A DNA stretch of 32,000 nt from Candidatus Korarchaeum cryptofilum OPF8. GTDB taxonomy: Archaea; Korarchaeota; Korarchaeia; Korarchaeales; Korarchaeaceae. The notes under the pieces are model-generated. The model was not told the origin of the DNA. It did no database searches and saw only the letters and a list, made by a program, of their open reading frames with translations. A program made the position numbers and the translations under genes. Where the stretch lies: positions 660,001 to 692,000 of the forward strand of contig NC_010482.1 in NCBI RefSeq assembly GCF_000019605.1, written 5' to 3'. Shown one piece after another: positions 16,000 through 30,617 of this stretch. Numbering within the stretch: the stretch's first letter is position 1; each line of letters opens with the position of its first letter.

Positions 16000-17184
16000 A
16001 TGAGGTCTTACGTCCCGCTCCTCGTCCTCATCCTAGCATCATTCGCCATCCTCTATCTAGCTCTCACGAGCAATCCGGATCTCAAGGCTTCTTATGACTC
16101 TCTCAAGAAGGAGCATGAAAAACTCCTATCGGAATATAAAAAGCTCAATTCAACCTACAATGATCTCAAGAGAGAGCATGAGAACGCTCTGAATGAGTTA
16201 AAGGAGCTTAAGGCCTCATATGAATCCCTGAGGAAGGAGCATGAAAAACTCCTATCGAGCTACAATGCGCTTAATTCCAGCTATAGCGCACTCAGGAAGG
16301 AGCATGAAGCTACCCTGAGTGAGTTAAGGACGCTGAGGAGCGAGTACGAATCTCTCGCGAGAAGATACAATGAGCTGCAGGAGGACTTCGGTGCACTCAA
16401 GAGAGAGCATGAGAACACTTTGAATGAGTTGAGGAATCTGAGAAGCGAGTATGATGATTTAATGAGCAGATACAATAAGCTGCAGGGAGATTACAACGAT
16501 CTTTTGAATGCATACAATCTCCTGAAGGGCTACCATTCCTCAGCCAAGCAAGTGAGGTGGTATGAGAAAGTAGCTTATGAGAAACTGAGTACGAATTGGT
16601 TCAAAACTGAACTAGCCCTTTGGAGGAGTTGGTACATCCTAAAATCTGATTTAAGGGTCTTGCTCCTCTCAGATGACTATGGGCAGGCTGGAGCGACTAT
16701 GTTCGCTGAGATGGTGAGGAGGGATCTCTCATACAACAGCGATCTCTACAGGGGGATCATCCATGAGTGGCTGAGGGATCACCCAGCTAGGAATGAGGTG
16801 GAGCTCGCGAATGAGATAGCCAGGCTCTTCTACTCATTGGATCATAAATACGCTTATCCTGGTGTGGATGAGCCCAACGCTGGGCTTCCCCTATTCCCAG
16901 TAGAGCTCCTAGCTTACAATTTAGGGGATTGTGAGGATCATGCCATGCTATTAGCTGCCCTCTACAAAACAGCGGGTTTCAGAGTCAGGATGATAACAGT
17001 TCCGAGGCATGCTGCCCTTCAGATATATTTAGATGGAAGATGGCGTTTCCTCGAGGCTACAATACACTTCGACGATGGGGGAGATGCTCCTTGCTCCTTC
17101 TACTCCAGTTTGACCGTGGATTATCTTGAGAGGACCTTCCTTAATGGGTACAGTGGTGTTACTTATTACTACGATGAGGTCTAG
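16000..17184 (+). CDS. membrane-anchored coiled-coil protein with C-terminal transglutaminase-like cysteine protease domain
   Basis: 394 aa with an N-terminal TM (LLVLILASFAILYLAL). About 21 uninterrupted heptads span aa 28-176. TGase-like core: NLGDCEDHAMLLAALYKTAGFRVRMITVPRHAALQIYLDGRWRFLEAT (candidate triad C311/H337/E352). Confidence 0.75.
   Translation: MRSYVPLLVLILASFAILYLALTSNPDLKASYDSLKKEHEKLLSEYKKLNSTYNDLKREHENALNELKELKASYESLRKEHEKLLSSYNALNSSYSALRKEHEATLSELRTLRSEYESLARRYNELQEDFGALKREHENTLNELRNLRSEYDDLMSRYNKLQGDYNDLLNAYNLLKGYHSSAKQVRWYEKVAYEKLSTNWFKTELALWRSWYILKSDLRVLLLSDDYGQAGATMFAEMVRRDLSYNSDLYRGIIHEWLRDHPARNEVELANEIARLFYSLDHKYAYPGVDEPNAGLPLFPVELLAYNLGDCEDHAMLLAALYKTAGFRVRMITVPRHAALQIYLDGRWRFLEATIHFDDGGDAPCSFYSSLTVDYLERTFLNGYSGVTYYYDEV
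16081..16527 (+). repeat. in-frame heptad repeat array (Y-x-x-L-[KR]-x-E-H-E type) with exact DNA duplicates
   Basis: EHE recurs at aa 38, 59, 80, 101 and 136 (spacings 21, 21, 21, 35). Y/F..L recurs every 7 residues. The exact 24-mer aaggagcatgaaaaactcctatcg occurs at 16108 and 16234, and the 21-mer ctcaagagagagcatgagaac at 16165 and 16396. Confidence 0.85.
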
Positions 17185-17425: not shown

Positions 17426-19123
17426 ATGCGAAAAATTGAGAAAATATTCAGGTTCAATAAGATAGATAATTCATGGGTCCCGAAGCTCATACTCGGCGAT
17501 GTGAGGGAAGTGCTCCCCCGCCTCCCGGATAATTTCATCGATTGCGTTATCACCTCCCCGCCGTATTGGATGCAGAGGGACTACGGGCATCCGGATCAGA
17601 TAGGTAGGGAGGGGACGCCGGAGGAATACGTTAAAACAATAGCTGATATATTTGAACTCATTCGGCCAAAGCTAAAAAGAACAGCGACGATCTTTCTCAA
17701 TGTTGGTTACAAATATTTAAACGAACGCCTCATTCTTATCCCTGAAATGATAGCTTTAGAGATGGAAAGGAGGGGTTTCTTACTGAGGAATAAGATAATC
17801 TGGTGGAAGCCTAATGCGATGCCTACTCCCGCTAGGAACAGGCTCAACAATGTATACGAGCCAGTCCTCTTTTTTATCAGGGACGACGGCAAGGAAGTAT
17901 ACTATTTCAACCTCGAGGAGATATCACCAAAGAGCAGGACGCTCGATCATTACGCTAATTTGTTTTCCTTCACTCCACAGGAATTAATAGGCGTTAGAGC
18001 GATAGATTCTCTCTCAGGGAGGGAGACTAAAGAAGGTAAAGTTATTGGAGTCAGATTCACTCAAAAGAAGATCCTTGAGGTCCTGATTCAATGGGAAGAT
18101 GGGGCCGAATGGTTGCCCTTCGGCGACCCGCTGAAGAACTACCCCGAGAGGATAAGCTTCTCATGCCCTGAATGCGGGGCCTCGATAAACGAATGGGACA
18201 TAAGACTATCCTTCGCGAATCTAGGGGAAATGATATGCCCGGAATGCGGAGCATTGCTCTGCTCAGATCCCGAGACATTTCCGATACCATCGTTCCCGAA
18301 TTCTCCATACGAGGGCCCACAAGAGATAAAAGAAATAATAGACCCATCCGTTAAAATAAAAAAATATGTCACAAAAATCCCGAGAAACAGTAAATTCGTG
18401 AGGGCTGAATTGGATAAGATCCTCACAGCTTCTCCCGCTGGGAGGCTCGCGGTCCAGGGGGAGTACATCTCGATCAAGCGCAGATGGGAAGCTCCCCAGC
18501 CCTTAATAGCAAAATTTTTAAGATATTGGAGGAACCTCAAAAGAGTATCAATAGAAGATATAGATATAGAGTTAGGTTACTCTTACACAGCGGGACACTG
18601 GTTTAGACTCGACTTCGGTTGGTGGGGGAAGGGGGGCTCCGTACCGCGACCCGGTGATTGGGGCCGCCTGAAGAAACTGCTAGGCTTCAACGACATCTAT
18701 GATAAATTAGTTACTGAAAGGGTGGCAGTGCTTCAGACAGTTAAACCTCATGAAACGGGGAAAAATCCCGGGGATGTTCAGGGGATTGAGGTGGAGGAGA
18801 TACTCGAAGATTTCAAGAGGAATTATGAGATAATGGGAGAAGCCGGGGATATTTGGAAGATAAAACTCGAGCCCTATCCGGAGGCCCATTTCTCAATCTT
18901 TCCGACGAAATTAGTTGAGACAGCTATGCGTATGGGCTGCCCGCCGAGAGGTGTCGTTTTGGATCCCTTCGCGGGCTCTGGGACAGTTGGGGAAGTGGCT
19001 ATGAGGCTCAATAGAAAGGCTATTTTGATAGAGTTGACCCCCGAATTCGCTGATCTCATTAGAAAGAGATGCGGAGGGAAGGTTGAAATTATAAGCTATG
19101 AGGATCTAGTTAATGCGAAGTAG
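17426..19123 (+). CDS. beta-class N4-cytosine/N6-adenine DNA methyltransferase with about 300-aa central insertion containing a 4-Cys zinc ribbon
   Basis: 565 aa. Motif IV ITSPPY (17555..17566 encodes SPPY) lies N-terminal. Motif I VLDPFAGSGT and HFSIFPTKL lie C-terminal, the IV-then-I order of the beta class. CPECG(x21)CPECG is encoded at 18164..18262. Confidence 0.85.
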   Translation: MRKIEKIFRFNKIDNSWVPKLILGDVREVLPRLPDNFIDCVITSPPYWMQRDYGHPDQIGREGTPEEYVKTIADIFELIRPKLKRTATIFLNVGYKYLNERLILIPEMIALEMERRGFLLRNKIIWWKPNAMPTPARNRLNNVYEPVLFFIRDDGKEVYYFNLEEISPKSRTLDHYANLFSFTPQELIGVRAIDSLSGRETKEGKVIGVRFTQKKILEVLIQWEDGAEWLPFGDPLKNYPERISFSCPECGASINEWDIRLSFANLGEMICPECGALLCSDPETFPIPSFPNSPYEGPQEIKEIIDPSVKIKKYVTKIPRNSKFVRAELDKILTASPAGRLAVQGEYISIKRRWEAPQPLIAKFLRYWRNLKRVSIEDIDIELGYSYTAGHWFRLDFGWWGKGGSVPRPGDWGRLKKLLGFNDIYDKLVTERVAVLQTVKPHETGKNPGDVQGIEVEEILEDFKRNYEIMGEAGDIWKIKLEPYPEAHFSIFPTKLVETAMRMGCPPRGVVLDPFAGSGTVGEVAMRLNRKAILIELTPEFADLIRKRCGGKVEIISYEDLVNAK

Positions 19124-27225: not shown

Positions 27226-27486
27226 ATGGCATATGTGGTTAAGGCAGATGATAGGGGGAGAATAAAGCTGCCGAAGGACGTTGTATCCCCCGGGGATAGA
27301 ATTCTGGTTATACCGGCTGGAAGAAGAATTTTACTGATAAAAATACCCCCGAAACCTGTTGAGGCCAGCTCTTCATGGCTGAAAACTGAGAAGGACAAAA
27401 AGGAGCTAAGAGCTCTGGCTGAGTCTTATGCAATTGAGGAGGTTGAGATGAAGCTGAGGAGGAGAGATCTTGCTGGTGGAGACTGA
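27226..27486 (+). CDS. vapB: AbrB/MazE/SpoVT-family antitoxin (VapB-like)
   Basis: 86 aa. The N-terminal swapped-hairpin motif KADDRGRIKLPKDVVSPGDRILVIP is followed by a charged C-terminal tail. It overlaps the downstream PIN gene by 17 nt. Confidence 0.8.
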   Translation: MAYVVKADDRGRIKLPKDVVSPGDRILVIPAGRRILLIKIPPKPVEASSSWLKTEKDKKELRALAESYAIEEVEMKLRRRDLAGGD

Positions 27487-27892
27487 TGTAATATTAGCTC
27501 ATGTGAAGGAGAGGGACTGGCTAAAACCTTACGCAGATAAGATACTAAGAGCAGCAGATAGCGGGAGGATAAAGCTCTGTGCGAGCTGTGAGGTCATTCT
27601 TGAGCTTTATTATATGTCCATTAAACTCGGCATCGATATGGAAACCCTGCTTAGCAAGGTAGCTGCCCTCATAAGCATAAACATGGATTGGATTCCAGCA
27701 ACTGTTGAGATCTCTCTGACAGCAATGACTTTGATGCTAGAGTACAATCTGAGCTCAATATTCGATGCATATTATGCAGCTACAGCTCTCCTCTCCGATC
27801 CGGATAGAACTGTAATATCGACGGATTCGATCTACGGGAGAATACCTGGTATAAAGAGGAAGGATCCAAGGGAGGTCGCTGAGCTATTATAA
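27470..27892 (+). CDS. vapC: PIN-domain ribonuclease toxin (VapC-like)
   Basis: 140 aa. The acidic residues have PIN spacing: VETDVIL (D6), CEVILEL (E), IFDAYYAATA (D), VISTD (D). TTG start at 27470, or GTG at 27476. Confidence 0.8.
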   Translation: MLVETDVILAHVKERDWLKPYADKILRAADSGRIKLCASCEVILELYYMSIKLGIDMETLLSKVAALISINMDWIPATVEISLTAMTLMLEYNLSSIFDAYYAATALLSDPDRTVISTDSIYGRIPGIKRKDPREVAELL

Positions 27893-28041: not shown

Positions 28042-28938
28042 TTATGATATAATTCTGTATCTTACATTATACTTATCACGAATTTTTGTTGCCCTCTCCT
28101 CAAGTTTATCTTCATACTCCTTCGGAGGTTTGAAGGAAGCTCTAAACAGGCTCCTGTATTTGGGTATGAGATTGGGAAAATGTCTCTCCAGAAATCTATA
28201 GTAAAGCGTCTTGCAATCAGCTGGCCCATCTCCAAATAAAGTCAGGGTGCCGACGAAGGCATAATCTGCCCCATAATCCTTCGCAGCTTTTATCATTCTA
28301 TCTATCTCTTCCTCCGTGTCGGAGATGAATGGTAAAGTGGGTGCATAACAGACTCCCGTGAGGAACCCCTCTTCCTTGCATCTCATCATGGTCTCCAACC
28401 TTTCCATCGGTGCGGGTGCCCCCGGCTCAAGAGCTCTCGCGAGCTTCTCATCGAGAGTGGATATTGAGAATGTGATCATTGCTCCACGATTCAGCTTCTT
28501 CAGGTCATCGGGCAGGATAGCTGTTTCGTCTATCTTCTTCAGTATATCAAGATCCCTCAGCACAAGCTTAGATTTCGTAACTATATGAACCGGAAACCTA
28601 TACCCGAGGATTATCTCAAGGGCTTTCCTCGTCAGCCCCAGCTTCTCCTCTATGGGCATGTAAGGCTCTGTCGAGGTTGCAATGCATATTATTCCGTATT
28701 CTCTCCTTCTAGCCCTCAGAGAGAGCTGCCTTCTCAGTACCTCCGGTAGATTTACCTTAGCTGATAGAGTTCTTTCCATGTTCTCCCCGTACTTGCTCCC
28801 CCTTATGTAACAGTAGATGCAGTTGAAGGCGCATCCCTCATACGGATTTACCGAGTAATCATCCAGAAACCAGTCATCCCTCCTCTTATGCTTGTTTAAG
28901 ACAGATTTTACCTGAATCTCATTGACCATTTCGCTCAT
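28042..28938 (-). CDS. radical SAM protein, SPL/COG1533 (spore-photoproduct-lyase-like) family
   Basis: 298 aa. Motifs VNPYEGCAFNCIYCYIR (CxxxCxxC), TSTEPYMPIE, VTKSKLVLRDLDIL, SISTLDEKLARALEPGAP and ERLE are typical of this family. Confidence 0.8.
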   Translation of the reverse strand: MSEMVNEIQVKSVLNKHKRRDDWFLDDYSVNPYEGCAFNCIYCYIRGSKYGENMERTLSAKVNLPEVLRRQLSLRARRREYGIICIATSTEPYMPIEEKLGLTRKALEIILGYRFPVHIVTKSKLVLRDLDILKKIDETAILPDDLKKLNRGAMITFSISTLDEKLARALEPGAPAPMERLETMMRCKEEGFLTGVCYAPTLPFISDTEEEIDRMIKAAKDYGADYAFVGTLTLFGDGPADCKTLYYRFLERHFPNLIPKYRSLFRASFKPPKEYEDKLEERATKIRDKYNVRYRIIS

Positions 28939-29124
28939 CAGAGGGACTTTATCTCATCCTGCCTCTCCTTCGGCAGCTTCTTCATTCCATCCCTTATTAT
29001 CTATCTTGCATTTTTATCCTGTTTAGCCCATTTCTGCAGGAATTTGAAAACCGCTTTTCGAATATGAGTATGTAAATGCCCGGCATAATGCGATATTTTG
29101 CGGAGAATAAAGTTCCTCTTCCTC

Positions 29125-29835
29125 TCAATCCCCCTTTCCGATTTTCGGGTTTTCTCCTCCCGTTTCGATAGCCCTAACTCTGGCTAATAACCATATATAA
29201 ATTAAGTCGAAGACCGAGCAGAATACACCGAGCGCGAGGATCAATGAACTCGGTCTAGCATAATCTGTACCTAAGAGGCCGAATGAGATAGTGGGGGCCA
29301 GAGTGCCGAGCCACTTGCTAACGGCTATTAGCATACTTTGACCTTCGCTGCTCTTACGCTGGACAAGCATATTGATGAAGAGTACTGACATCAGGAGGTT
29401 CTGAAGGAAGGCGGAGTAGCGTGCACCCATAAACCCGAGCTCAGTGAAGAAGAGGATCTGTATGACGAACGCGACAGTCAAACCGAGCATACTCCAGGCA
29501 TAAAACCAGTGGAATGGGAAAATTGCGGGGAAGTACTTTTTCCCGAAACGGAAATAAGTGTAGAGGATGCCGATGTCAAGGATGAACCAGATTGAGGTGA
29601 TAATTGGCTGCAAGGCCAGAACTCGCGCTTGCATCATATATTGCATCCCGATGACGGAATAAACACCTTCCCACGCTATATTCAGGGCCAATGCCCAGAA
29701 GGGCATGGCATATGTTCTCTGTCGAATGCCCAAGCGGATGCAGTCAATGTAAACGATCGTCCAACATAAACCGCTGGATCCGGTGAGAAATAAAGAGAGT
29801 AATTCATGTTGAGGGATGACCGTTAAATTAAGCAC
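29125..29835 (-). CDS. 7-TM integral membrane protein, candidate Pyr4/PaxB-like transmembrane-type terpene cyclase
   Basis: 236 aa with about 7 hydrophobic segments. Motif TYAMPFWALALNIAWEGVY (E56) and a late acidic residue in VFDLIYIW (D210). Size, topology and acidic-residue spacing match my recollection of membrane terpene cyclases. Not verified by any search. Confidence 0.4.
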   Translation of the reverse strand: MLNLTVIPQHELLSLFLTGSSGLCWTIVYIDCIRLGIRQRTYAMPFWALALNIAWEGVYSVIGMQYMMQARVLALQPIITSIWFILDIGILYTYFRFGKKYFPAIFPFHWFYAWSMLGLTVAFVIQILFFTELGFMGARYSAFLQNLLMSVLFINMLVQRKSSEGQSMLIAVSKWLGTLAPTISFGLLGTDYARPSSLILALGVFCSVFDLIYIWLLARVRAIETGGENPKIGKGD

Positions 29836-29837
29836 CG

Positions 29838-30110
29838 CTATCTACCTCCGATATCCTCCAATCCCCTCAATTCCCTGACAGCAGCAGCTGCATCAAGCCC
29901 TATAGGCCTGCTTCTCGGGATCTCCGATTCCGTTGTGGGCTCGAGATCGCCGAGGCCCAGCTCCTCGCTGAGAGCTTCAACCCACCTCTCGAAGACCAGG
30001 CATTCCAAATATTCCTCAGTGATACTGCCTAAGCTCCTGCCCCTGATGGCAGCGATCTTCTTAACCTCATTCGGCAAGCCATCCACGATCAGGGGCTTCT
30101 CCTTGACCAT
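29838..30110 (-). CDS. ribbon-helix-helix (CopG/VapB-like) antitoxin-like small protein
   Basis: The track ORF runs to 30170, but M21 (ATG 30110, MVKEKPLIVDGLPNEVKKIAAIRGRSLGSITEEYLECLV) gives a typical RHH beta-strand plus two helices. The C-terminal tail is ..PIGLDAAAAVRELRG. Its stop lies 2 nt before the ATG of the 7-TM gene. Confidence 0.5.
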   Translation of the reverse strand: MVKEKPLIVDGLPNEVKKIAAIRGRSLGSITEEYLECLVFERWVEALSEELGLGDLEPTTESEIPRSRPIGLDAAAAVRELRGLEDIGGR

Positions 30111-30585
30111 CCGGATCCATGTATACGGATATGAGACATAAAAGATTTTCTGATGGAAGATGCTCCGCATGGAGATGAGGATTCGGGAAGTATTTTAAGC
30201 TTAAAAATGACTACTGTGAGGAGAATCGTACGGCATTGGGTTTATTGTGGGCAGCTTAGTTCTTCGAATGAGAGTAATAGAGATCATTGCTGCTACTTTA
30301 GAGGCGAGACTAATACTCGAGGAGATTGAGAGCTAAAAACTCTGGAATCGCTCAATTATCATTTGGATGCCCCTGCGGGATTTCGGATTACATGTCAACA
30401 GAGACCTACGCGGAGCAGGATTTAGCTGAGGGATTTTCTGGAAAAAGCACTACTGATTCACGGGATGAGATAAATGAAAGAGGAAGAGCTTCGGAATTCA
30501 TGCCGGAAGGATTCAAACGGAGAGCCCGGCCGATCCTAGAAGGTTCATTAAGATGTGAAAGTTAAGGGATTACCGATTCAGCATC

Positions 30586-30606
30586 AATTAAAAATAACGA
30601 AAAGGG
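30586..30606 (-). terminator. oligo-T tract downstream of the surface protein gene
   Basis: The minus strand reads cccttttcgttatttttaattg immediately after the stop at 30618. Archaeal termination typically occurs at T-runs. Confidence 0.4.
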
Positions 30607-30617
30607 TAGCTGCCCAC

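Follow-up and report, generated by a model that had tools for sequence, protein, structure and literature searches.

What is a gene of the Pyr4-like family of transmembrane terpene cyclases doing in an archaeon, directly behind an antitoxin gene and in the place of a PIN toxin gene? The question arises from a locus in a 32,000-nt stretch of the genome of Candidatus Korarchaeum cryptofilum OPF8 (NC_010482.1, positions 660,001 to 692,000; assembly GCF_000019605.1), here called the window, in which an initial annotation had described a cluster of three co-oriented minus-strand genes: a ribbon-helix-helix (RHH) antitoxin-like gene, a seven-transmembrane (7-TM) gene, Kcr_0678, and a radical SAM gene. 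Of ten window proteins compared by exact sequence, nine match OPF8 proteins without a difference (ACB07404 to ACB07429; chromosome of 1.59 Mb). All three open reading frames (ORFs) were found where that annotation had placed them (29838-30170, 29125-29835 and 28042-28938). It had offered two explanations for them, a module of isoprenoid or lipid modification formed by the three genes together and a toxin-antitoxin (TA) or abortive-infection pair formed by the first two. Comparison of the window with contigs and loci that hold homologues (labeled with L-numbers, such as L002, L026, L027 and L115) led us to favor a different reading, to which we assign a probability of roughly 0.6, namely, that Kcr_0678 is an acquired gene for a membrane enzyme of the Pyr4-like family that occupies a former toxin slot and is run from what used to be the promoter of the antitoxin. 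The membership of Kcr_0678 in this family is already found in public annotation, and the novel part is its evolutionary context.

A Pyr4-like protein in the slot of a PIN toxin

Fungal natural-product clusters, and a few bacterial ones, are the known sources of Pyr4-like membrane cyclases, with Pyr4, PaxB, AndB and AscF as fungal and XiaH, TylF, GroF and the zigralone cyclase as bacterial representatives. Kcr_0678 shares with them a length of ~230 to 245 aa, seven transmembrane (TM) helices, a full-length profile match and an intramembrane Glu and Asp, and it differs from the known members in being archaeal, in belonging to a stand-alone clade and in being located behind an antitoxin gene. The proposal that it is a homologue of Pyr4-type cyclases was borne out by its match to Pfam PF25129 (E=1e-20; 74.8 bits, with a gathering cutoff of 27), in which residues 12 to 220 align with profile positions 15 to 224 of 227, that is, along the full length. 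A protein search with Kcr_0678 retrieved 2264 homologues, with PF25129 present in 120 of 120 among the matches listed, while an exhaustive profile search recovered 1398 clusters at 50% identity (E<=1e-3). The assignment thus holds without being new, since RefSeq already names the protein (WP_444876895.1, 236 aa) a “transmembrane-type terpene cyclase.” Public gene calls disagree about its length, which is 170 aa in GenBank (as a hypothetical protein), 193 aa at JGI and 236 aa in the current RefSeq; the GTG at 29835 is the sole canonical start upstream of the conserved N-terminal helix.

Two acidic residues, E56 and D210, had been pointed out as possible counterparts of the essential pair of Pyr4. 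Both are present and are invariant across 45 close homologues. Among 111 full-length representatives (25 to 59% identity, median 37%) they are conserved in 96% and 95%, respectively, as are, to a similar degree, D87, N52, W55, N146, S150, R160, K174 and Y213. The active-site residues of Pyr4 are E63 and D218 (PMC6486709), separated by 155 residues versus 154 for the pair in Kcr_0678. In the AlphaFold2 model (predicted local distance difference test score [pLDDT] of 92.4), E56, D87 and D210 lie mid-helix. The model helices comprise residues 9-38, 46-70, 75-101, 109-160, 168-188 and 197-225, and the long helix 109-160, read by eye as two transmembrane spans, is consistent with a total of seven. 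Between OPF8 and an 84%-identical Korarchaeal hot-spring copy, the ratio of nonsynonymous to synonymous substitution rates (dN/dS) was 0.10 at a dS of 0.80, a sign of purifying selection that indicates that the gene is functional in Korarchaeia.

The small gene upstream, originally described as a VapB-type RHH antitoxin of ~90 aa, does encode 90 aa when read from its true start, the ATG at 30110, as indicated by homologues and by the conserved upstream DNA. Its identification as an antitoxin gene also held, as it belongs to the DUF6364 family and its orthologues are found directly upstream of VapC PIN genes. The family comprises 21 proteins, and all 19 with a recorded Pfam entry carry PF19891/DUF6364 (one of them also matches RHH_1); the match of the window copy to DUF6364 is weak. 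An RHH fold is weakly suggested by a PDB profile search, in which CopG, Arc and E73 came out on top with non-significant scores (E ~0.1 for CopG and Arc), and the Foldseek matches of the AlphaFold2 model (pLDDT of 69) were likewise non-significant.

In sister Korarchaeia, where the RHH orthologues are ~72% identical to the OPF8 copy, the orthologous loci are complete VapBC pairs. A PIN gene, named VapC toxin in RefSeq, follows the RHH orthologue in L026, L027, L117, L118 and L119, either overlapping it or within ~20 nt, and the cyclase gene follows it in OPF8, L115 and L002/L003. The clearest comparison is that of L002, which carries the cyclase gene, with L026, which carries the PIN gene: their DNA is 91% identical through the RHH gene and 86% identical downstream, and the sole difference is the cassette in between (L002 1647-2469 versus L026 2963-3405). 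Because the DNA flanks align around a clean PIN-to-cyclase exchange, the cyclase gene fills precisely the slot of the toxin, as the initial annotation had supposed when it remarked that the 7-TM gene lies where a PIN toxin normally would. The tight coupling noted there is also real, with the GTG start of Kcr_0678 located 2 nt past the RHH stop in OPF8 and an 8-nt overlap at the same junction in L002. No PIN gene is found right after the RHH gene of OPF8, where the slot holds the PF25129 gene; tblastn detected no orthologous PIN in the window, and no VapC orthologue of the OPF8 chromosome appeared among the best 120 homologues of the RHH-linked VapC. The OPF8 locus thus shares with VapBC loci the antitoxin family, the promoter block and the tight gene coupling, but it differs from them in having a membrane enzyme gene instead of a PIN toxin gene, together with an eroded palindrome and a damaged N-terminal strand of the antitoxin (see below). 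That closely related strains differ at this one antitoxin gene, some having VapC after it and others an enzyme gene unrelated to VapC, is a documented case of toxin replacement and illustrates how TA loci can receive and express genes of foreign origin.

A block resembling a B recognition element and TATA box (BRE/TATA-like), AGAAAAG-TTTTTATG, is kept upstream of all RHH orthologues and would act as their promoter. In the PIN-linked loci, a palindrome of 20 to 22 bp with 10/10 to 10/11 pairs lies between this block and the start codon, and the one in L117 is perfect, with the operator-like sequence CCGTATATACGTATATACGG. The palindromes of the three cyclase-linked loci, OPF8 included, preserve only 6 to 8 of 10 to 11 pairs. 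The RHH protein of OPF8 has changed as well. Compared with the 97.7%-identical contig L115/L116, it shows two single-codon deletions and approximately nine amino acid changes, two new prolines among them, within 29960-30110; all are located in the N-terminal half, which holds the DNA-binding strand and helix, while the C-terminal half is identical except for one silent change. The cyclases of the same two genomes differ at 4 of 236 residues. The eroded palindrome and the damaged N-terminal strand may be signs that regulation of the cyclase-linked loci is relaxing.

Origin and role of the cyclase-like gene

According to the reading that we favor, Kcr_0678 would be a seven-helix integral membrane enzyme derived from a large, mostly bacterial stand-alone clade, which would have reached Korarchaeia by lateral transfer and then replaced the PIN gene behind the DUF6364/RHH antitoxin gene. 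Since it took the PIN slot, with only 2 nt between the RHH stop and its own start, its transcription from the former antitoxin promoter is probable, with the RHH and cyclase genes probably co-transcribed as a two-gene operon in which the RHH protein would be at most a weakening autoregulator. By analogy with the characterized members of the family, the buried E56 (TM2) and D210 (TM7) would protonate a double bond or an epoxide of a membrane-embedded isoprenoid, and this protonation would start a cationic cyclization or a related reaction.

The distribution of homologues points to bacteria as the source. In a scan of GTDB contigs with one genome per species, 22 of the 22 matches were bacterial, and no archaeal genome appeared among them. 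The best matches came from Chloroflexota (Anaerolinea at 72% and Thermoflexus at 70% identity), followed by many Pyrinomonadaceae and Blastocatellia at 49 to 58%, as well as Chlorobiaceae and Thermoanaerobacterales. Nearly all metagenome loci with a homologue (79/80) were non-Korarchaeal as well. In a neighbor-joining tree, the Korarchaeal pair of cyclase versions falls within bacterial diversity, as sister to a thermophilic Chloroflexota group. With Chloroflexota as the closest genomic relatives (70 to 72%), lateral acquisition is probable, and most likely Kcr_0678 entered Korarchaeia by transfer from bacteria. Base composition gives no sign of a recent transfer, the cyclase gene (GC content of 0.48; 0.58 at third codon positions) being at the low end among the window genes without being an outlier. 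Among the papers that our literature search covered, none connects Pyr4-like cyclases with archaea or Korarchaeum. In bacteria, a survey from 2026 found only 264 of 1107 Pyr4-like candidates to have terpenoid neighbors (PMC13307353), and the clade of Kcr_0678 is the stand-alone fraction that this survey set aside. A large stand-alone group (~1400 clusters at 50% identity) has also reached an archaeon with an isoprenoid membrane. Its members retain the catalytic acid pair but lack any cluster context, and an archaeon with a small genome offers a clean place to study their function.

Several points weigh against this reading. The equivalence of E56/D210 with Pyr4 E63/D218 is suggested by the spacing and by the co-linear Pfam match. 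A Foldseek search of the model against the PDB returned as top matches 7-TM transporters and receptors (cystinosin, SWEET and the KDEL receptor), with a TM-score of ~0.5. In ~105 bacterial loci, no prenyltransferase, polyprenyl synthase, epoxidase or P450 gene was found beside the homologue, so the role as a cyclase is inherited only from distant characterized relatives. The RHH gene has a dN/dS of 0.16 to 0.25, and the toxin-binding tail is included in this purifying selection, which simple promoter capture does not explain. The comparison of palindromes involves only seven loci, four PIN-linked and three cyclase-linked, and some of these are close relatives of one another. Finally, the neighbor-joining tree has no support values.

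In a rival explanation, the stand-alone clade would have lost, or never had, cyclase activity, and its members would instead act as membrane transporters, as receptor-like proteins or as enzymes for a non-isoprenoid lipid, with only the fold shared with Pyr4. Terpenoid gene context is absent throughout the clade loci examined, the closest solved folds are those of cystinosin, SWEET and the KDEL receptor, the conserved polar residues N52, D87, N146, S150, R160, Q166, K174 and Y213 suggest a polar ligand, and one homologue from Acidobacteriota is fused to a SET domain. We nevertheless consider this explanation unlikely, given the strong and full-length match to the Pyr4-TMTC profile, the retention of the acid pair at ~95% and the weakness of the Foldseek matches (E >= 2e-3, root mean square deviation of 5 to 8 A). 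Sequence and profile searches of the PDB with Kcr_0678 found no relative, and no solved structure of the Pyr4 family is present there.

Alternatively, as the initial annotation had also suggested, the RHH and 7-TM proteins might form a non-canonical TA or abortive-infection pair, in which a toxic membrane protein, changing for instance the isoprenoid membrane lipids, would be neutralized or repressed by its RHH partner. The position of the gene exactly in the toxin slot, its tight coupling in both OPF8 and L002, the conservation of the RHH gene upstream of the cyclase in all three known Korarchaeal contexts, the purifying selection on that gene (dN/dS of ~0.2) and the location in a variable, TA-rich region would all fit such a pair. 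However, bacterial orthologues (50 to 72% identity) stand alone in ~105 loci, with no RHH partner, and the catalytic-type residues and the strong purifying selection on the 7-TM gene resemble those of an enzyme. The RHH tail is also the same in PIN-linked and cyclase-linked copies: between the RHH protein of L002 and its PIN-linked counterpart in L026, identity is 92.5%, with 6 scattered substitutions in 94 residues and an unchanged C-terminal tail, which argues that there has been no adaptation to a membrane partner. The erosion of the palindrome and of the OPF8 DNA-binding strand is the reverse of what a live toxin demands, and PADLOC gave 0 matches among the five proteins examined. We regard a TA pair of this kind as improbable. 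A variant in which the RHH-cyclase pair is a TA-like or defense module whose effector cyclase attacks the unsaturated isoprenoid ether-lipid intermediates or polyprenyl carriers of its own cell is a long shot; if true, it would define a new class of toxin that can trade places with VapC at one locus.

Beyond their lack of terpenoid genes, the ~105 bacterial loci show recurrent neighbors of the homologue, namely, PEP mutase, GNAT, aspartyl and PDZ proteases, DUF4440, TetR and YjbR, which are unrelated to it and largely reflect shared ancestry among Acidobacteriota. No homologue of the RHH or the radical SAM gene was found by tblastn in ~670 kb of bacterial loci. In the 32-kb window, too, there were no prenyltransferase, polyprenyl synthase or epoxidase genes. 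The SET fusion is encoded by a single ORF (L010:367-1395) in an Acidobacteriota metagenome-assembled genome (MAG; JBKOYD010000093.1), which joins the cyclase homologue (PF25129, 1.4e-22) to a C-terminal SET domain (lysine methyltransferase; PF00856, 4.7e-8) and may be an assembly artifact. A Thermoflexus MAG (CAZLOF010000189.1; L001/L012:88-4291) carries two tandem Pyr4-TMTC paralogues followed by genes for a DoxX_2 membrane protein and a PhyH-family protein. The latter is phytanoyl-CoA dioxygenase-like, and this is the sole context among those examined that hints at an isoprenoid-related neighborhood.

The radical SAM gene and the deletion scar

The third gene of the cluster had been called an SPL-type radical SAM gene, and its CX3CX2C motif (CAFNCIYC), its Radical_SAM domain (PF04055 at 4e-12) and its RefSeq name (“SPL family radical SAM protein”) all agree. 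It shares the motif and the domain with SPL/COG1533 enzymes, and its best NCBIfam similarity is to PA0069 and Rv2578c. It differs from these two families in that both models match it at 5e-50, below their curated cutoffs, and in that its Korarchaeal partner is an AlkD-like gene and not a cyclase gene. In L026 and L027, the radical SAM gene directly follows this AlkD-like DNA-alkylation repair gene (PF08713, matched at 1e-31 by the L026 protein), with no cyclase nearby. The L026 copy, whose product is 96.6% identical to that of OPF8, starts 5 nt after the DNA_alkylation gene.

The 186-nt spacer between the cyclase and radical SAM genes of OPF8 had been described as a gap. Its length is real, but it is not empty, as it contains a remnant of the AlkD-like gene, whose translation is 89.7% identical to residues 188-226 of the L026 PF08713 protein (tblastn). 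OPF8 and L027 are 97 to 99% identical on both flanks, with homology resuming at ~29056, and where L027 has the segment 3622-5605, with the PIN gene, three small ORFs and the greater part of the AlkD-like gene, OPF8 has window positions 29057-29863 with the cyclase gene. The radical SAM gene thus lies next to the cyclase gene because a deletion removed the genes on the PIN side and left only the end of the AlkD-like gene. Only OPF8 and the 97.7%-identical contig L115 have the complete trio, which is broken elsewhere, so the synteny expected of a module in related genomes did not appear; L002 carries a retropepsin-like ORF, not a radical SAM gene, downstream of its cyclase gene. Given the AlkD-like scar, the AlkD-radical SAM operon of the relatives and the lack of radical SAM genes in the bacterial loci, the trio is a deletion artifact and not a module, and the radical SAM gene is an independent gene, functionally unrelated to the cyclase. 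A single isoprenoid or lipid cyclization and modification module of RHH regulator, membrane cyclase and SPL radical SAM enzyme, although suggested by the co-orientation and adjacency of the three genes in OPF8 and L115, is largely refuted by synteny and hardly tenable, as the deletion created the adjacency, the radical SAM gene of the relatives follows a repair gene in a cyclase-free setting, a retropepsin-like gene stands in its place in the other cyclase-type locus, and none of the bacterial homologues examined has a radical SAM gene beside it. The case advises caution in reading gene clusters, since an apparent three-gene cluster turned out to be the product of a deletion. The coordinates of the features discussed are collected in Table 1.

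Table 1. Features of the antitoxin-cyclase locus of OPF8, in window coordinates
Feature	Position	Strand	Remarks
Promoter-like region of the RHH gene	30111-30151	-	BRE/TATA-like AGAAAATCTTTTATG (30137-30151), then eroded operator-like palindrome remnant (30111-30128)
RHH/DUF6364 VapB-type antitoxin gene, 90 aa	29838-30110	-	Mechanical ORF reaches 30170 (110 aa)
Kcr_0678, Pyr4-like transmembrane terpene cyclase homologue, 236 aa, 7 TM	29125-29835	-	PF25129; E56, D210
AlkD-like gene remnant, last 39 codons with internal stop	28941-29057	-	tblastn and direct sequence reading; deletion scar
SPL-family radical SAM gene, 298 aa	28042-28938	-	Pfam Radical_SAM; CX3CX2C

Surroundings of the locus

The region around the locus is variable and rich in TA genes, and the same applies to the related contigs. 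The left flank of the RHH-cyclase cassette (window 30171-30617) varies by strain and is a recombination mosaic: a 124-aa ORF is located there in L115 (1-445), L116 (100-675) and L002 (5-582), and OPF8 has instead a gene for a NosD-like surface protein, in common with the PIN-type contig L027. On the other side, the plus strand (27226-27892) holds an overlapping pair, made up of an intact AbrB/MazE-like antitoxin gene (86 aa) and a PIN VapC gene (140 aa), which converges on the radical SAM gene.

Scans of the 32-kb window for tRNA genes and Rfam families gave no match. Farther from the locus, the plus strand encodes a DNA methyltransferase at 17426-19123 (N6_N4_Mtase; cytosine-N4-specific according to its UniRef name), in which the methylase domain is split around a zinc-ribbon insert; some related contigs have only a 324-aa zinc-ribbon version within the same protein cluster. 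Also on the plus strand, the gene at 16000-17184 encodes a 394-aa protein that begins with a long coiled coil and has a transglutaminase-like core domain at its C-terminal end.

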